Shown here: positions 5,938-56,991 of the stretch, one piece after another | Position numbering within the stretch: position 1 is the stretch's first letter | Layout of the letters: each line of letters begins with the position of its first letter | Sequence record: PZ445530.1 | DNA length: 64,000 bases | Reading direction: 5' to 3' (one strand) | Source of the DNA: a phage | Program-made: the position numbers and the translations under genes | Notes under the pieces: generated by a model | What the model was told of the DNA's origin: nothing | The model's input: only the letters and a program-made list of their open reading frames with translations | The model's database searches: none

Positions 5938-6779
5938 AAATAACATTGTGGCTTCGTGCAGTGATGCACGTCGAAAACCTCTTTAATTGACGGGAAGGCT
6001 AAGTTGACTTTTACACCTAAACATGGTAAAAGCTCAATATGCTAATCCGCAGCGAAGACTAAAGGGGTGTAGTTAAAATGGCTAGATCAGTTGAGTATCA
6101 CGGATATACCGTGTTTGATGATGGAACAATACCTTTATCGAAACGTGATCATACAACAATGTTTTGTTTTGATAATGGTCGAGGTTACCTTTGCGTAACC
6201 ATGTTCATCGAGGGGAAGCAGTGCACAAAAGGTGTCCACCACTTGGTTGCTGAATGCTTTGTATCAAACCCTGATCCTGAAAGGCTCACATGGGTGAACC
6301 ATAAGGACGGAAACAAATACAACAATGCATACTGGAACCTTGAATGGACCACCCCTGGTGGAAATATCAAACACGCTTATGATAATGACCTCAGAGTAAG
6401 GCCAGTCGGTGAGTATAATGCCAACGCTGTACTGACCGAGGATGAGGTAACGGAGATTTGCGAACTGTTACAAAGTGGTTTACGACAATGCGAGATTAGG
6501 GATCTTGGGTATCCTTATGAGACGGTCAGAGCCATAAAGCAAAGAAGACAGTGGAAACATATCTCTAAAAACTACACCTGGTAGTAACGTTCAGAGACTA
6601 TCGAAAGCATAGCGCCAACATAAATTGGTGCGAAGAAGCGAGTAGAGTAGACCAGCAAGTGCGGTCGAAATGGGAGGTGCCTTGGTAACAAGGTAGTGAG
6701 ATAGTCCGATCCATACAGGAAACTGTATGGCTGTGCACGTAATGGTGCGGGGTAGCTTAACGACCTACCTGAACTATTG
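5938..6779 (+). mobile_element. group I self-splicing intron interrupting the DNA polymerase gene
   Basis: conserved core elements P (AATTGACGGGAAGG ~5985), Q (AATCCGCAGC ~6044), R (GTTCAGAGACTA ~6589), S (GAGATAGTCC ~6698); exon 1 ends in T, intron ends in G; exon frames differ. Confidence 0.7.
6078..6584 (+). CDS. intron-encoded HNH homing endonuclease
   Basis: NHKDGNKYNNAYWNLEW HNH motif; ORF nested between intron Q and R elements; own SD. Confidence 0.75.
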   Translation: MARSVEYHGYTVFDDGTIPLSKRDHTTMFCFDNGRGYLCVTMFIEGKQCTKGVHHLVAECFVSNPDPERLTWVNHKDGNKYNNAYWNLEWTTPGGNIKHAYDNDLRVRPVGEYNANAVLTEDEVTEICELLQSGLRQCEIRDLGYPYETVRAIKQRRQWKHISKNYTW

Positions 6780-17022: not shown

Positions 17023-17029
17023 AAAATTA

Positions 17030-18542: not shown

Positions 18543-18890
18543 ATGATCAGCGGGGCAAGTTTTATTATTGGCGCTATTGCTACGGCTTTAATTGTAAACA
18601 AGATCCAATCTAAAAACGAAAAAGAGAGCAACGCGCTCACAGAATACCCATTTTGGGTATTCAACGACAATGAAGACTACATTATCAAGTACAAGAATGA
18701 GAAGGGCGACCAGGTAACACCGCGACCGATCCCGGCCTACAAGATGCAAGAAACACTATACCGCCTAAAGGCTGGAGGCGCAAAAATCGTAGACTTTTGG
18801 GGATATGATTGCAAGGATCAGGAGGTTATAAAACGGCGTATCCGGGCTATTCAGGCCAATATTGAAGTTAGCAAGGGGGGGAATATATGA
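18543..18890 (+). CDS. putative membrane-anchored protein
   Basis: ATG after AAAGGAGAAAG SD; N-terminal TM SGASFIIGAIATALIV. Confidence 0.5.
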   Translation: MISGASFIIGAIATALIVNKIQSKNEKESNALTEYPFWVFNDNEDYIIKYKNEKGDQVTPRPIPAYKMQETLYRLKAGGAKIVDFWGYDCKDQEVIKRRIRAIQANIEVSKGGNI

Positions 18891-19084
18891 AGATTAATTT
18901 TGAGAAGATTGTAAAGCGATCTCATGATTCCGAAGAGCTGCCGGAACGACGCCAACGTAACAATAAACTGAATAAGCCAAAAAGATTTGGAAAGATCTGG
19001 CGAAATCATTATGATCGTAAATTGCCTGGCCTACTTTTGGAACGTGAACGACAGGCAGAACGATACCGCCATAAAGACAAATAA
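18887..19084 (+). CDS. small basic protein
   Basis: 65 aa, Arg/Lys-rich; start overlaps upstream stop. Confidence 0.45.
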   Translation: MKINFEKIVKRSHDSEELPERRQRNNKLNKPKRFGKIWRNHYDRKLPGLLLERERQAERYRHKDK

Positions 19085-19242
19085 CAACCAACGCCCCCGC
19101 CATTGTGCGGGGCTTTTTATTTCTATCCTACGAATAGCGCCCCTGGTTGGCCCTGTAAGCGCCAAAAAGGCCCCACCTATGCAATCGCCCCCTTTAACCT
19201 GAAAACATCGCCCAGGGCCGTTTCATGGCGTTAAAAATATCA

Positions 19243-19637: not shown

Positions 19638-20262
19638 ATGACCACCGTTAACATTACCACAGGTTACAATTTATCTTTCGACGTGCTGACCGATGAACAA
19701 AAAAGAAAAAGCTATTGAAATGGTCCGCGAAAGAGAAGAACACAGCGGGGATAACTTTTTTGCAGAAAGTGTAATTGAAGACTACAAAGAACATATCTTT
19801 CCAGAGTATGGCCTTGAAGATACCAAGGTACATTGGTCCGGCTTTTGGTGCCAGGGCGACGGCGCGTCAATCAGTGCGGAAAACGTGGATTTAGAAAAAT
19901 TCTTGCGTAAAGTCAAGTCTCTGACTAAATTCCGCTCAATTCGTCACTTGTTCGGCACAATGCACGATGGCGAGCTATCCGCAAGTGTTGAGCGTGATCC
20001 ATATAGCCGCTATAGTCACGAAAACACTGTAAGCGGGTACATCGATACTACATGGCTAGACCTGACAGCCAAGCAAGAAAGTAAGGTTGAAGAGCTGGAA
20101 GAGTTGATCACCGAGAACGTACGGGAACTATCCCGCAAGGTTTACGTAGACCTGGAGCAAGCTTATCTTGAACAATTTACTACCGAAAACCTGATCGGCC
20201 TTATCGAGGCCAATGATTGGCGGTTTGATGTGGATGAATATGGAGAGATGAGTTTTTCATAA
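19638..20262 (+). CDS. hypothetical protein; reading frame interrupted, needs a +1 shift in an A6 run (~19699-19704) or the sequence has a homopolymer indel
   Basis: promoter, hairpin and AGGAGA SD serve ATG 19638, which stops after 26 codons; long ORF 19693..20262 continues in +1 frame without its own SD. Confidence 0.4.
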
Positions 20263-21392: not shown

Positions 21393-21508
21393 CAACCAAG
21401 GATAAGCCCCGTACCGATAAGGCGCGCCGGGTTATGGTATGGCTTGAGATCATCGCCCTTGAAATATTGCTAGGCGTAGGGATGTACTTTATCGCTGTAA
21501 GTAACTAA
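21389..21508 (+). CDS. small membrane peptide (39 aa)
   Basis: ATGA overlap with upstream stop; GGAGG SD; hydrophobic C-terminal half. Confidence 0.35.
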   Translation: MTTKDKPRTDKARRVMVWLEIIALEILLGVGMYFIAVSN

Positions 21509-21563
21509 GAACGGCCCCCGATCATGGGGGCCTATCTTTTTAAAAAATTTCCCTTTCAGGGTG

Positions 21564-21591
21564 TTGCAATCCGGTCCGCAATATGGATAAT
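21564..21591 (+). promoter_or_regulatory. sigma70-type promoter
   Basis: TTGCAA-16nt-GATAAT; hairpin CGGGGaaacaTCCCCG downstream. Confidence 0.5.
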
Positions 21592-21650
21592 AACAATCAA
21601 CGGGGAAACATCCCCGCCACACAAACAAAAGCCCGAAGAGGAGAAAGAAG

Positions 21651-21850
21651 ATGAGCAACAATATCCGCGTTATTAACTTCAAAAAGAAGAAAAAATTGCC
21701 GTGCTGATTGACGGTCAAGAAATCTTCAAGGGCGACTATGAAGATCATCAAACGGCGATTAGTATCACTCGCGTGATTGGTTATCATAATTTCTACCCCC
21801 AAGGCGCTGAGGCAGCAGTTAAACGAATCAAAGAGATTGTAGGCCTGTAA
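21651..21850 (+). CDS. hypothetical 66-aa protein requiring a -1 shift at AAA-AAG (~21681-21687), or sequence indel
   Basis: ATG with GAGGAGAAAG SD stops after 18 codons; -1 frame continues ...EEKIAVLIDGQEIFKGDYEDH... to stop at 21850. Confidence 0.4.
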
Positions 21851-21852
21851 AA

Positions 21853-21898
21853 TTTATTTTTAGATGGCCTTGACTTCAGGGCCATCGATAAAGTAAAT
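21853..21898 (+). repeat. repeated hairpin/promoter-like element (copy 3)
   Basis: TTTATTTTTAGATGGCCTTGACTTCAGGGCCATCGATAAAGTAAAT. Confidence 0.55.
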
Positions 21899-21943
21899 TT
21901 AAACCCTGTTAAAATACCACGCAGTTAACAAGGAGTGATAGAC

Positions 21944-22243
21944 ATGTTTATCCAGGCTAATAATCTTTATTTCTTTGATGGTCAGATCGTAGATGGTGTG
22001 GAAGTGGAGATCACCGGGTGCCCTGGTGGTCAGGCTATGACTTTCCGGAATAATGCCTTTGATGATTCTCATATCGTTATGAGAATGGAAGTTACGAAGC
22101 TGGACGACAAGAAAACACTTATTGACTATTCTGTGAAAGATCATCCAGACTACCACATGATCTATGGTGATTTGTGCATTGTTGACCGTGACAAGGTGGG
22201 CGGCATTGTGATCGCTATTGTGAACGATGTTTTCTCAAACTAA
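21944..22243 (+). CDS. hypothetical protein
   Basis: ATG after AAGGAG SD. Confidence 0.55.
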   Translation: MFIQANNLYFFDGQIVDGVEVEITGCPGGQAMTFRNNAFDDSHIVMRMEVTKLDDKKTLIDYSVKDHPDYHMIYGDLCIVDRDKVGGIVIAIVNDVFSN

Positions 22244-23412: not shown

Positions 23413-23466
23413 ATAAATCAAAGGGGGGCAACAAGCCCCCCACCAACCACAAAGAGGATAAAAATC

Positions 23467-23955: not shown

Positions 23956-24003
23956 GTACTACATAGCGCGGGAATACTTCCCGCCATTAATGAGGGTAAT
24001 TTA

Positions 24004-24141
24004 ATGAAAACTTTCAACGCAACAGCCTCGACAATTGGTTATATTATTACAGTACAAGCCGTGGATCTGGTAGCAGCAGCAAACAAGATTAAAAAGATGA
24101 TTCCGCCAGGTAGTGAATTTTCCGTTTGGGAAGTAAAATAA
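24004..24141 (+). CDS. hypothetical small protein (45 aa)
   Basis: ATG after TGAGGG SD. Confidence 0.4.
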   Translation: MKTFNATASTIGYIITVQAVDLVAAANKIKKMIPPGSEFSVWEVK

Positions 24142-24144
24142 ATC

Positions 24145-24172
24145 TTGACAATAATTTATTACTTGATAGACT
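24145..24172 (+). promoter_or_regulatory. sigma70-type promoter
   Basis: TTGACA-16nt-TAGACT. Confidence 0.5.
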
Positions 24173-24224
24173 GTATTTCGTAGTGCGGGGAAATAAGGCA
24201 ACGCCCATTAATGAGGGTAGAATC

Positions 24225-30400: not shown

Positions 30401-30679
30401 TTACCAGAGGGTCTTCTGCATCTTTAGTATTATACCACCCGTGAATAACCAGAGTCCCACACTCTGTTTCATATCTAACTGGAACTGTTCTGCAGTTTCC
30501 TCATCCATCTCTAAGATCTCCATAAGGTACTTGATGTTAGGAAGGTATGCAGCTGTTACAGTTCCCTCTACCAGACCTTCGGGCCAACCTACATCCGGAT
30601 GACAAGTAGGAACCAGATTAGTCAGCTTAATAGTGTACGCTTTTTCTGCACGAGCCTTCAGTAACGGGTCAATCTTCAT
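30401..30679 (-). CDS. small acidic protein (family member); 3' end may continue in another frame to 30351
   Basis: alternate frame is open to a TAA that overlaps the next ATG and encodes a family-like C-terminus ...YEILGPLNLEED. Confidence 0.45.
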   Translation of the reverse strand: MKIDPLLKARAEKAYTIKLTNLVPTCHPDVGWPEGLVEGTVTAAYLPNIKYLMEILEMDEETAEQFQLDMKQSVGLWLFTGGIILKMQKTLW

Positions 30680-37676: not shown

Positions 37677-37988
37677 TTATTTAGCAATCACTATGGAATA
37701 CTTACGATTGTCAGAAGCATCACAACTCAATGATTGCCAGTCTACCACATACCACGTATCATTGTCAACAATTACTTTATCGCCTGTTCTGTAGCAAGTG
37801 CTGCTTTCAATAATTCGAGACTCGATAAAGAATCTGTGTCGGCGCTCACGTAGCAACGCTAAGTTAATTATATTACCACCGCTGTCCTTGGTCCACACAT
37901 TCTTGGATCCTTTATTTGCCAAAATTGTCTCGCCGTTATAGACAAACAGGCAGTATATTTTATTCAATCTCTCTTGTATTGTAGCCAT
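37677..37988 (-). CDS. hypothetical protein
   Basis: ATG with upstream minus-strand promoter TTGACA-17-TATTAT. Confidence 0.45.
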   Translation of the reverse strand: MATIQERLNKIYCLFVYNGETILANKGSKNVWTKDSGGNIINLALLRERRHRFFIESRIIESSTCYRTGDKVIVDNDTWYVVDWQSLSCDASDNRKYSIVIAK

Positions 37989-38089
37989 ACTGTCCTTCTC
38001 TTTGTTTTGTCCGATAATAATATCTAAAGCTTGCCTATTTGTCAACAACTGTTTTAGATATTTAAGGGTGGAATAACCACCCTTCTATA

Positions 38090-38878
38090 TTACTCGGAAA
38101 CAGGGGTCCAAATATGATTTGCACGATCCTCAATAAGATTGAGTGCGATCTGACGACCCAACCCGGAACGAACGACATCGTCTGGACTATCAAAGCTGAT
38201 CATTCCAACCTCAGGATCTGGATGACGAGTAAAGAAATCCGTCACCCATGCAAGTCCAGATTTACCAGGGATGTCACGTTGGCTATTATCCCCCATAATT
38301 ACAAGGGTGGCCTGATCAGAGATCCTTGTGATAATTGACAACATTTCTTCAGGGTTAGTTTGCTGTGCCTCGTCAATCAGGACAAAGCATCGCTCATCGA
38401 AACTACGACCACGAATGCTTTCAACTTCACAAATCTCGATACGGCTGTTCTGACCGTCTCCCAGCATTGCGGCAAAAGCACCTTTGCCAACACGGCGACA
38501 AATCGTGTCCATCATGCTTCGAAGATAGGGCCACAGTTTCTGCATTGCATTTCCAGGTTTAAATCCTGAAGTCTTCCCTGTCTGAACGTAAGGGCGTGCA
38601 ACAATGATCTTATCAATCTCGTTCTTACGCAGAAGATCACCTGCATATGCAGATGCCATGAATGTCTTACCGGATCCAAACACACCGTTTACAATAATAA
38701 TCTTACGTGACCCTAGATAATCAAGGTACTTTTGCTGCTTTTTATTCATTGGTCGGAGAGCTGGAGCGGTGTGCTCTCTTTCGTCAGCAAATTTCTCAGC
38801 AGCCTTACGCAGGCGATCAGATTTGCGAGCCTCTCTAGCTTCATCACGCATGCGTTTTGTTTCTTTAGCTCGACCCAT
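38090..38878 (-). CDS. phoH: PhoH-like ATPase
   Basis: Walker A GVFGSGKTF, Walker B FVLIDEAQ; PhoH-like overall pattern. Confidence 0.7.
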   Translation of the reverse strand: MGRAKETKRMRDEAREARKSDRLRKAAEKFADEREHTAPALRPMNKKQQKYLDYLGSRKIIIVNGVFGSGKTFMASAYAGDLLRKNEIDKIIVARPYVQTGKTSGFKPGNAMQKLWPYLRSMMDTICRRVGKGAFAAMLGDGQNSRIEICEVESIRGRSFDERCFVLIDEAQQTNPEEMLSIITRISDQATLVIMGDNSQRDIPGKSGLAWVTDFFTRHPDPEVGMISFDSPDDVVRSGLGRQIALNLIEDRANHIWTPVSE

Positions 38879-39441: not shown

Positions 39442-39915
39442 CTAGTCTACCTGAACCCAACCGCCTGCTACTTTTTTAAACATTCTTTGGTTATCGCTGC
39501 CTCGGAACGGTTTCTTGGTTGGTAAATCTTTTACATACTTACCGTCAATGATGATATCAGCCAGTTTAAGAACATCACTAGAGATATGGTCAAATGTGAA
39601 CCCAGTATATACAAGAATAGTTTTCTTGTCACCAAATTTTTCCTTAATTTTCTCCATCAGGCTAATAATACCTGGCTCATTATAGTATGCTAAGGGTTCT
39701 CCACCCAGCAGAGAGATACCGCACACAGACGGGTTATCCAGATCTGACAAGATTTTTTGCAAATCTTCTTCAGTGAACTCCCTCCCCTTATCTTTTGACC
39801 AAAATGCCTGATTAAAGCAACCAGGGCAAGCGTGTGGGCACCCAGATACCCACAAGGCAGTTCTAATACCTGGCCCTTCTGTGTAAGATACTTCTGTGTA
39901 TCCGACAATGTTCAT
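39442..39915 (-). CDS. nrdG: anaerobic ribonucleotide reductase activating protein (radical SAM)
   Basis: CPHACPGC (CxxxCxxC) cluster near N-terminus; adjacent to nrdD. Confidence 0.75.
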   Translation of the reverse strand: MNIVGYTEVSYTEGPGIRTALWVSGCPHACPGCFNQAFWSKDKGREFTEEDLQKILSDLDNPSVCGISLLGGEPLAYYNEPGIISLMEKIKEKFGDKKTILVYTGFTFDHISSDVLKLADIIIDGKYVKDLPTKKPFRGSDNQRMFKKVAGGWVQVD

Positions 39916-39944
39916 AGATACTCCGTATCACATTTAGGGCAATG

Positions 39945-40028
39945 TCAAATAAAATCGTCTAGTGCCTTGCACCAACGAAGATTGCAACGACAACCACACT
40001 TGCAAATTTTATAAATACCTGTAGACAT
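39945..40028 (-). CDS. cysteine-rich micro-protein (27 aa) between nrdD and nrdG
   Basis: MSTGIYKICKCGCRCNLRWCKALDDFI; GGAGG SD 6 nt upstream of ATG. Confidence 0.35.
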   Translation of the reverse strand: MSTGIYKICKCGCRCNLRWCKALDDFI

Positions 40029-40091
40029 ACTGTACCTCCTAGCCCACTGTGTGTCAATAATATGCCACATCCTTGTGGCTTTTGTCAAGTA

Positions 40092-42215
40092 TCAGCAACT
40101 ACAACTTCCATAGTGCTTAACTCGCTCGATAACTTCCGCTTGCTTACCTTTATTGTAAGGACGGGAGTTAGGACTGGAAAGGTATCCAGACACTCTTCGG
40201 ATCACTGAGATATATTGTTCATCGTGGCATCCGCACGCAGGGCAGCAGAACCCTTTAGCTGTTGCACTGAACTCACCAGAGAAACCACACTTGAGACATT
40301 TATCTACAGGTTGGTTAATACCAAAATACATAATGTGTTTATACCCGAAGTCAACAAGAGCCTCTAAAGCATCCAGGTTGTTTTTCAGGTTAGGTGTCTC
40401 TACGTATCCGATGTTGCCACCAGAGGAGATCATAGCAAAACCTTCCTCATACTCCCACTTATCAAAAGGAGAGCTATTTATCCATACTGGCTGATGGAAA
40501 CTGTTGGTGAGATATTCATGCTCGTGCTTCAACACTTCCGGATATTCACGATCCAGACAGGTTGCAGCTTTATAGCATAGACTCTCAGAAGGAGTGCCGT
40601 ACAAGCTAAACGCTAGTCTACTTTCCTTCTTGTATCGCTCACAAGCATCTCTCATGTGCTGAAGGATTCCAAGAGCTAAAGCCTTGTCACCCTCTCTACC
40701 CAAAATCTGACAGGTTTCATACACACCAATATACCCAATACTGATGGAAGCGTACCCGTCATAGAAGAGTTTATCAATACTCTCTTCAGGATCCAGGCGA
40801 GCAAGAGCTCCTTCACACCACATGATGGGGTTCTGCCCTGCCTTTGTTCCTTTTAGACGGTTAACCCTTACAAGGTGAGCCTCGTATGCAAGATCCAAGT
40901 ATTCGTCAAGAACTGCAAAGAAATCAACACCTTCCGTCTTAGCTTTTGCCGCAATCATTGGCAGGTTAAGGCTAACAACGCCTAAGTTAAATCTGCCAAG
41001 GTATTTCTCCTCGCCTGTTTCCAAGTCATTGTATTTGCTAAGAAAACTCCTGCAACCCATGCTAGTTACTTTGCCATCTGTCGAGCCTGTCACTTTTCTA
41101 TTTAGTGGTACAGATACGAAGTCAGGATAGATACGTTCTGCACAGCATTCCAGAGCTAATCGTTTCAAATCATAGTTAGGATCCCCAGGGTTCATGTTGA
41201 CACCCTCTTCCAGGAAGAACAGCACTTTAGGGAACACAGGTGTGATACGTTCTTCACCAAGACCCATTTTGTGGACTTTCAAGTAGTTTTTGGTAATCAT
41301 TCTACCAAAGACCGAGGTATCCAGCCCTAAACTTAATGTTATGAATGGAGTTTGCCCGTTGACAGAGGTTAACGTATTGATTTGATAGAGCAAAGTCTGC
41401 ATGCTGTCAAATACGTCTTTATCTGTCATTTGCATTGCAACAGTCTCAGCATCTGGCAACCAATGTTCCTGGCAAAATTTAAGGTTCTTCTCATAAGTTG
41501 CTTCAGCATATTGTGCCAGATAATGATCAATATGGCTCATAGTCTGACCACCATATTGAGCACTAGCTACCGCACTAGAGATTTGGCTAAGGATTGTTGT
41601 TGCAACCCCTATTGACTTCGGCTTACTGACATGGGCGTTACCAATGTTGAATCCGTTTTCCAACATATCTGGATAATTTACCAAACAACAGTTTGTTAAC
41701 GGACTGATCAAGTAGTCAAGATCATGCACATGGATGAATCCTTTATTGTGCTCTTCGGAGACACGGTCTGGCAGGATCTGTGTTGATGCAAGGTGTTTGC
41801 TAAGAATACCTGCAAGCAGGTCGCGATGAGTGTGTACATGATTAGTAGGCTTATTTGCGTTTTCTTTTGTAAATTCATCACAAGTTCGATCCAAGAAGCC
41901 ACTAATATCTGCAAGCAGTTTTCCACCTGCCTCTCTGTTATTATCTCTTGTCTGTCTATACTGGATGTATTCTCTGGCTGCACATTTTAAACCCATATCC
42001 ATAAGAGCATCTTCAACAAGGATATGGATATTTTTTACAGAGATCGTGCACTGGTCGGTTGGTAGATTGTTAGCAACAACTTCATTAACTGCACAAGCTA
42101 TCCGGTAAGCTTCTTCTTCAGTATGTCCAGACTCAAGTAAGGCGGACTCTGCCGCCTTGATCACCTTAATTCCGTTATAAAACTCTTCTCTACCGTCCCG
42201 TTTTACAACTTTCAC
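40092..42215 (-). CDS. nrdD: anaerobic ribonucleoside-triphosphate reductase (class III)
   Basis: C-terminal glycyl-radical motif RVSGYLS and Zn site CLKCG...CPACGC; 707 aa. Confidence 0.85.
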   Translation of the reverse strand: MKVVKRDGREEFYNGIKVIKAAESALLESGHTEEEAYRIACAVNEVVANNLPTDQCTISVKNIHILVEDALMDMGLKCAAREYIQYRQTRDNNREAGGKLLADISGFLDRTCDEFTKENANKPTNHVHTHRDLLAGILSKHLASTQILPDRVSEEHNKGFIHVHDLDYLISPLTNCCLVNYPDMLENGFNIGNAHVSKPKSIGVATTILSQISSAVASAQYGGQTMSHIDHYLAQYAEATYEKNLKFCQEHWLPDAETVAMQMTDKDVFDSMQTLLYQINTLTSVNGQTPFITLSLGLDTSVFGRMITKNYLKVHKMGLGEERITPVFPKVLFFLEEGVNMNPGDPNYDLKRLALECCAERIYPDFVSVPLNRKVTGSTDGKVTSMGCRSFLSKYNDLETGEEKYLGRFNLGVVSLNLPMIAAKAKTEGVDFFAVLDEYLDLAYEAHLVRVNRLKGTKAGQNPIMWCEGALARLDPEESIDKLFYDGYASISIGYIGVYETCQILGREGDKALALGILQHMRDACERYKKESRLAFSLYGTPSESLCYKAATCLDREYPEVLKHEHEYLTNSFHQPVWINSSPFDKWEYEEGFAMISSGGNIGYVETPNLKNNLDALEALVDFGYKHIMYFGINQPVDKCLKCGFSGEFSATAKGFCCPACGCHDEQYISVIRRVSGYLSSPNSRPYNKGKQAEVIERVKHYGSCSC

Positions 42216-55758: not shown

Positions 55759-55826
55759 GGTTAAACCCTCCCTAACATTGTATGAGGTAACAATACCACG
55801 TCCGTGTGGTCATGTCAATGATACTG

Positions 55827-56525
55827 TTACAATCTTTCAGCAAGAGCCTTTGCGTAACACGCTTCAGCAGACTCTTTGGTGTCAAACCTGCCTAGCGTTT
55901 TTCCTCTGAAAGTTACTTTCCATTTGCCCCTATCTGCTTCAAATCTGACACCTCTAGATTTATCCCTCCCTAAAGGCTGTCCACGATATTCCCTGACAAA
56001 CGTGCCACTTTCAAAAGACTTTTGAGCAGCAAGGGCCTCTTCTAAGGTATCGTATTCTCCTAGGTCTTTCTTATAGTAATGACCTACCTTACCAAAAGCA
56101 GCATACCTTCCAGTTCTAGCATGAAAATATACACCCAAGTGTCCAGTGTTAGATTTAGGTATCTTGCGTGCCAGGCATCCGTCATCTGCCGCCTTTTTTG
56201 CGTTTTCTTCTGGTGTTAACAGTTGTAGGTTTTCTATCCTGTCATCAGCAACACCATCGGAATAGAAAAGTGGCTTTATGTGATCAACTTCGTACCCTTC
56301 TGGAATTGGTCCATAATGCATCTCCCACACCAATCTATGCCTGTAGTAATGCACGCCGCGATAGATTATATCCCTGTACCCGTCCATGTTAGTACATCCA
56401 GCCTCCTTTCCCATCAGTTGAGGTTTGTTTTTTGGTGGGGACTTCCAAAACAACCTTCCAGTGCCTGTATCGTATCTAAAGACACTCCACCAGTCAATCC
56501 CGTTACTCATCTGTAACAACTCCAC
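55827..56525 (-). CDS. HNH homing endonuclease
   Basis: HRLVWEMHYGPIPEGYEVDHIKPL...NLQLLTPEENAKK HNH signature. Confidence 0.7.
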   Translation of the reverse strand: MELLQMSNGIDWWSVFRYDTGTGRLFWKSPPKNKPQLMGKEAGCTNMDGYRDIIYRGVHYYRHRLVWEMHYGPIPEGYEVDHIKPLFYSDGVADDRIENLQLLTPEENAKKAADDGCLARKIPKSNTGHLGVYFHARTGRYAAFGKVGHYYKKDLGEYDTLEEALAAQKSFESGTFVREYRGQPLGRDKSRGVRFEADRGKWKVTFRGKTLGRFDTKESAEACYAKALAERL

Positions 56526-56991
56526 CTGCCTTCTTAAAGATCTCCAGCATCTTGTCTATACTTTCTGCTCGCTGATTGTACAGCTTTCCAGCCCCTGGCG
56601 GTGGTGGGAAGCTTGCCCAGCGGCTGCGGCATTTATAAATGGCCTGATGAATACGCCCTTCATCAATGTCGGCGAGAGCCTTGCACTCACGGATCAGTTG
56701 CAACGCAATCTTGTCCTGACTGTCAGGGCCAAAATCTGGTAATCCTAACTGTTTCATGTAGTGTTTAGCAAACTTCTCCAAAACCTGGTAACGCCCAGCA
56801 GCGGAGGAGGTAAGTTTAGCATTTAGCTTAACGTAAACACCGGGATGCTTGCTGTAATCGCTGAACAGCTTGCCTCCGACTATGACATCGTACCCCCGAT
56901 CCTTGGTAGGTTGTCTACCATTATCTGTGCCTTCCGAATATGCGATCATATCCAAGAAAGCTTTTCGTTGAACATTTTTATCAAGTTTCAT
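56503..56991 (-). CDS. endolysin, lambda R-like lytic transglycosylase
   Basis: near-colinear with lambda R: QRKAFLDMIAYSEGTDNGRQ...GYDVIVGG...FSDYSKHPGV...AAGRYQ. Confidence 0.8.
   Translation of the reverse strand: MKLDKNVQRKAFLDMIAYSEGTDNGRQPTKDRGYDVIVGGKLFSDYSKHPGVYVKLNAKLTSSAAGRYQVLEKFAKHYMKQLGLPDFGPDSQDKIALQLIRECKALADIDEGRIHQAIYKCRSRWASFPPPPGAGKLYNQRAESIDKMLEIFKKAGGVVTDE

Follow-up and report, generated by a model that had tools for sequence, protein, structure and literature searches.

The window analysed here, a 64,000-nucleotide stretch of phage DNA (PZ445530.1), contains a small gene that is broken by a frame change near its 5′ end (Table 1). The frame opened by ATG 21651 stops at TGA 21705-21707, and its codons 1-12 equal the N-terminus of the 66-aa protein of the family to which the gene belongs. 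The −1 frame is interrupted by a TAA at 21674-21676; from 21677 onwards it has no stop until a second TAA at 21848-21850, and the overlap productive for a −1 shift is 21677-21704. The original prediction for this locus, made from the letters of the window, had described a frame ending after 18 codons and a −1 frame open from just 5′ of an A-run, both of which were confirmed. The 48-aa continuation given there was found to comprise 54 codons, which follow ...NFKK and read EEKIAVL...IVGL, 49 aa being the length of the GTG-started ORF inside this remainder. The GTG sits 4-6 nt ahead of the TGA of the truncated frame, in a GTGCTGA overlap. This ORF is what gene callers report for the frameshifted gene, and it is called as a gene on contigs L007-L010.

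The signals that had been proposed to serve ATG 21651 were all found, namely a promoter-like site, a leader hairpin and a GAGGAG element. The promoter is putative, being recognised by its consensus match. The reverse complement of the leader hairpin was returned by the terminator/promoter scan. The intrinsic terminator of the preceding small gene is the upstream limit of the transcription unit, and in phage Murica terminators are annotated at the places equivalent both to this element and to the hairpin directly 3′ of the stop codon. The next gene has a promoter-like site at 21870-21899, which the latter hairpin overlaps. Lying between a terminator and the next promoter, the gene appears to form its own small early transcription unit. 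In the records of phages A51.2 (L001 1625-1777) and rV5_ev158 (L022 783-932), at the equivalent of window 21524-21676, a 49-50-aa ORF is annotated over the promoter and leader, and the unbroken 66-codon gene just downstream of it is left unannotated; the overlapping call is probably a gene-calling error.

Table 1. Features of the broken gene and its surroundings (window coordinates)
Feature	Position	Strand	Description
Intrinsic terminator of preceding small gene	21513..21541	+	GC-rich hairpin (21513-21532) followed by T-run; found by scan
Sigma-70-like promoter (putative)	21564..21591	+	TTGCAA-16 nt-GATAAT; found by scan, 9/12 consensus matches
Small 5′-leader hairpin	21598..21619	+	GGGG...CCCC core; read from the sequence, conserved in relatives
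Shine-Dalgarno sequence	21638..21643	+	GAGGAG, 7 nt 5′ of ATG 21651
Truncated reading frame	21651..21707	+	18 codons (MSNNIRVINFKKKKKLPC) and TGA
First A-run	21681..21685	+	A5 in the window, A6 in all relatives (alignments, run-length tally)
Out-of-frame gene remainder	21686..21850	+	54 codons (EEKIAVLIDGQEIFKGDYEDHQTAISITRVIGYHNFYPQGAEAAVKRIKEIVGL) and TAA
Second A-run	21690..21695	+	A6 in the window; A5 in L007-L009, A7 in WalterGehring
Predicted RNA stem with inner hairpin	21694..21760	+	21694-21702 pairs with 21752-21760
GTG-started ORF inside the remainder	21701..21850	+	49 codons
Hairpin 3′ of the gene	21863..21886	+	GATGGCC...GGCCATC, directly 3′ of the stop codon

By sequence identity, the window is from an rV5-like phage (Vequintavirus). 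About 120 GenBank records of rV5-like Escherichia coli phages match the region at 92-99.7% identity, none of them completely; the nearest is that of phage A51.2 (ON286973), to which the whole window is 93-98.5% identical. In A51.2, isim and Murica, the corresponding sequence is TTC-AAAAAA-GAAG-AAAAAA-TTG (A6/A6), and the gene is a single 201-nt, 66-codon ORF with a hypothetical-protein annotation. The window reads TTC-AAAAA-GAAG-AAAAAA-TTG (A5/A6), one A short in the first run, and the frame is therefore broken. This missing A is the sole difference between the window gene and the A51.2 gene, the remainder being 100% identical in nucleotide sequence to the intact gene. The frame break is thus not a chance pattern of ORFs, as the two halves together constitute the conserved 66-codon gene of the relatives. 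Once repaired, the window gene encodes a protein identical to the family consensus; given this and the complete nucleotide identity to A51.2, the lesion is taken to be recent.

The A5/A6 allele is a singleton among the sequences reached, being seen in none of the approximately 120 GenBank records, the metagenome contigs or the Logan contigs. Of the 120 matching GenBank records, 106 distinct ones were listed; over the first 91 nt of the gene, the net length change is zero in 105 of these and +1 in the remaining one. A gapped pattern allowing any run length matched three contigs in IMG/VR and the JGI metagenomes, all of them A6/A6, and gave no match in the GTDB genomes; the exact pattern of the A5/A6 allele gave none in IMG/VR. 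All 10 long contigs that carry the neighbouring 99-aa gene are A6/A6, and in the contigs matching that neighbour by exact protein look-up, the 66-codon gene was always either intact or otherwise lesioned. Exact look-ups of other proteins gave no record for the 189-aa neighbour and A51.2 as the sole source of the 50-aa upstream ORF, and complete E. coli genomes yielded no match.

The intact gene encodes a protein of an already known family. The repaired 66-aa sequence aligns over residues 1-66 with profile positions 1-66 of phrog_12347, a 66-aa Vequintavirus protein (E = 1.6e-49), which the window copy, as written, cannot yield by standard decoding. An identical protein was found in 76 of 116 GenBank records; by tblastn, only a few records depart from a single 66-codon frame, and about 97% of relatives have the gene intact and highly conserved. 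Between divergent members, pairwise pN/pS in the single frame is 0.04-0.11, with pS up to 0.47; the intact ORF is under strong purifying selection. The repaired protein matched no Pfam family above threshold, and a HMMER search of 1.84 billion representatives returned, beyond the family itself, a single protein of 1057 aa, which is repetitive and dubious. A medium-confidence AlphaFold model (mean pLDDT 74), built from 3 aligned sequences only, places three strands ahead of two helices, and Foldseek gave no significant match for it in the PDB (best E = 0.5).

Besides the allele of the window, five independent variants of the gene were observed in the alignment. An A6/A5 form occurs in three ENA metagenome assemblies, of which L007 and L008 are identical and L009 is one SNP apart. 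Phage WalterGehring (Bas51) is A6/A7, with one additional nucleotide in the second run, and the gene is unannotated there. Contig L016 has C4 in place of C5 at TACCCCCAA, phiWec193/196 carry a 10-nt deletion near the 3′ end, and Logan contig L017 (SRR32236299) carries an in-frame 45-nt deletion. In L017 (1001-1230), the next (99-aa) gene is largely missing too, only its last codons being left before the following gene. The repaired proteins of the window, L007 and WalterGehring are all equal to the consensus, indicating that each of these lesions is young. Broken alleles were identified in 3 of 116 GenBank records (about 3%). Given these repeated, independent lesions, the gene looks dispensable as judged from its broken alleles, and the pattern is in keeping with a gene that has a use in nature but whose loss does not kill the phage, short homopolymers being its easiest break points. 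The literature on escape mutants of Bas51 reports retron triggers in other genes, and nothing on the 66-codon gene.

The run-length background of the window was also surveyed. The window contains 238 homopolymers of five, 65 of six, one of seven and none longer. Long homopolymers are thus almost absent from 64 kb of 43% GC, the single run of seven being G7 at 18875-18881; A51.2 likewise has few long runs, but has two intergenic T11 runs beside TTGAC promoter-like boxes, one of which corresponds to A6 at window position 17027. RNA polymerase slippage in E. coli requires roughly 8-9 or more A/T, and transcriptional slippage was rejected, the A5 and A6 runs being too short and no A or T run of the window exceeding six. 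Among the runs of five and six, the first A-run is the only one whose difference from A51.2 disrupts a gene. Where intergenic runs differ in length from A51.2, other phages share the difference: JeffSchatz is 100% identical to the window over 37940-38140, and EduardKellenberger has the same length as the window over 18800-19200.

When all A51.2 ORFs were compared with the window by tblastn, only one other true frame change was found, a GT duplication at approximately 30462-30463 in a minus-strand gene (30401-30679), where CAGAGTGTGGGACTCTG stands against CAGAGTGGGACTCTG. The gene encodes 109 aa in relatives (A512_113, ime_82), whereas the window ORF is of 92 aa with an altered C-terminus. The 350 nt around the duplication are 100% identical to phage ime, and the duplication is missing from all 30 relatives listed of 115. 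It is a dinucleotide slippage and not a homopolymer miscall.

Other differences between the window and its relatives were noted. At the start of a 189-aa gene (19693-19710), the window reads ATG AAC AAAAAA GAA and A51.2 reads ACG AAC AAAAA GAA, the difference in A-run length coinciding with a change of start codon; the A51.2 counterpart has its annotated start further upstream, in a 624-nt CDS. A hairpin at 23427-23441 has each arm two bases longer than in A51.2 (GGGGGG...CCCCCC vs GGGG...CCCC), a concerted change after which the stem is still paired. For four window segments (5938-6779, 23999-24204, 39560-40116 and 55823-56650), megablast found no counterpart at the corresponding place in A51.2, and A51.2 segments of about 3.1 kb (L005 27502-30619) and about 2 kb (L006 5763-7831) are absent from the window. 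These unmatched segments are mosaic gene content, and may be homing-endonuclease or other accessory genes. Furthermore, 17 GenBank records within MG065635-MG065690 named Campylobacter phage (host Campylobacter jejuni) carry rV5-like sequence of 92-100% identity, which suggests mislabelled or contaminating phages in that submission.

The original prediction preferred a dnaX-like programmed −1 ribosomal frameshift. An evolved signal of this type would set the ratio of an 18-aa product to a 66-aa trans-frame product. The likeness to dnaX lies in the AAA-AAG lysine pair with its shift-prone tRNA-Lys, which falls within the two-frame overlap, in a short zero-frame product ending soon past the site, and in a predicted stem (−20.5 kcal/mol, z = −2.74) that begins 7 nt after A_AAG. 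However, in dnaX an SD-like element lies upstream of A_AAA_AAG and a stem-loop downstream of it, whereas the heptamer of the window (C_AAA_AAG, 21680-21686) starts with C rather than A. On a −1 shift, the A-site tRNA would re-pair (AAG to AAA), but the P-site tRNA would be mismatched at the first position (AAA to CAA) and unable to re-pair fully. A canonical X_XXY_YYZ heptamer is absent and the only Z_ZZN tetramer is A_AAG (21683-21686); the slippery character claimed for the site thus held for the tetramer and not for the heptamer. The SD-like stimulator is lacking as well, the 20 nt upstream (21660-21680, AATATCCGCGTTATTAACTTC) containing no GGAG/AGGA-type element. Nor is the stem specific to the broken allele: its sequence is the same in relatives with an unbroken ORF, its pairs are kept at nine of nine in close relatives, eight of nine in HMD-6 and six of nine in Aya, where it is degraded, and no two-sided compensatory change was found. 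In 21400-22000, no Rfam family reached threshold, the two sub-threshold matches both lying on terminator-like hairpins. Moreover, the two-frame layout is not conserved, essentially all relatives carrying one unbroken frame, and the +1-nt lesion of WalterGehring is beyond correction by a −1 shift, which would make it worse. Shifting gives dnaX its short product, whereas the window gene would need it for the normal protein. Programmed frameshifting is already largely refuted by this sequence comparison and is considered extremely improbable. A different possibility, very unlikely though less so, is that the A6-GAAG-A6 tract is an on/off mutational switch, with leaky frameshifting at A_AAG, helped by the stem, keeping a little product; loss of the protein would then be advantageous on some hosts, for example by escaping a defence that it triggers or that targets it. 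Consistent with a switch, the two adjacent A-runs have been hit by three independent indels (window; L007-L009; WalterGehring), three further lesions lie elsewhere in the 201-nt gene, and every frameshifted allele retains a perfect downstream ORF. A_AAG is also the most shift-prone tetramer in E. coli, although its shifting reaches 5.6% only with the strong IS3 pseudoknot, and Z_ZZN tetramers without a dedicated stimulator give approximately 0.15% against a background of 0.11% (Sharma et al., 2014; PMC4066793). The concept has a documented precedent in the "savior" indel of the herpes simplex thymidine kinase G-run, with its compensatory frameshifting (Atkins et al., 2016; PMC5009743). There too a homopolymer indel inactivates the gene and rare slippage in the same run could restore a little product, but the run is G7, longer than the A5/A6 of the window, and the likeness is a possibility only. 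As for features of phase variation, A5, A6 and A7 occur in three lineages, but the tracts are short (A6), the other lesions are not repeat-mediated, and off alleles amount to only about 3% of GenBank relatives. The lesions also vary in sign (−1/+1) and in kind (deletions), a picture compatible with neutral or mildly selected loss but not with a switch, and the PHROG, Pfam, homologue and structure searches give no evidence of a host-defence or other function. If the switch were true, a savior indel accompanied by compensatory frameshifting would be exemplified here in a phage.

The two readings that carry most weight are a missing base in the phage DNA and a missing base in the consensus. We consider it most probable, at roughly 55%, that the allele is a recent, real slippage mutation that shortened the first A6 run of the conserved 66-codon gene by one A. 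The alternative, that the phage is truly A6/A6 with an intact gene and that an A was dropped at the homopolymer in the consensus, is a serious contender to which we give distinctly less than even odds. It is favoured by the uniqueness of the allele among all sequences reached and by homopolymers being the commonest site of indel errors, and the second unique frame-breaking indel in the window could mean that a few residual errors are present. The nucleotide identity of the rest of the gene to A51.2, with its absence of downstream decay, fits an artefact and a recent mutation equally. On the other hand, approximately 300 other runs of five and six contain no gene-breaking error, the polymorphic run lengths seen elsewhere in the window are shared with other phages, and the second lesion duplicates a dinucleotide. 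Real lesions of the same gene are present in three metagenome assemblies that are independent of one another, as well as in other phages. The assembly gives no impression of noise, and a real slippage mutation is accordingly favoured as somewhat more likely than a consensus error. The original prediction had named a one-base homopolymer difference as its alternative; the difference itself was borne out (A5 against A6 in relatives), but it had been equated with assembly error, whereas the other independent lesions and the lack of general homopolymer noise make it at least as likely, judged from sequence, that the base is missing from the phage DNA. If the base is missing from the DNA, the window allele shows no material difference from homopolymer-slippage pseudogene alleles of accessory phage genes, which likewise combine a one-base length change in a short run with an otherwise conserved ORF lacking downstream decay, and in which the same tract is hit independently across lineages, A5, A6 and A7 being seen here.

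Under the slippage-mutation reading, strand slippage during replication of the phage DNA would have removed one A from the first A6 run, after which translation from ATG 21651 would end after 18 codons and leave the remaining 54 out of frame. The allele would be a recent null or a strong hypomorph of a gene with which the phage can dispense under the conditions of its propagation. Full-length product might then arise only if tRNA-Lys slipped by −1, at an unprogrammed background level, on A_AAG or within the second run, and reinitiation at GTG 21701 might give an N-terminally truncated 49-aa protein; both routes are regarded as possible. Judged by the AlphaFold model, initiation at this GTG would cost the protein its first predicted strand and the greater part of its second.

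Overall, the lesion is of an ordinary kind in an already known family, and not recoding. Its main import is for annotation: the locus is to be described as a conserved 66-codon Vequintavirus gene in frameshifted form, to be corrected if reads show A6; neither a recoding site nor a pair of tiny ORFs should be annotated. An orphan early gene that is strongly conserved yet repeatedly and independently broken appears to be conditionally dispensable, which makes it a reasonable candidate for a role in host interaction.
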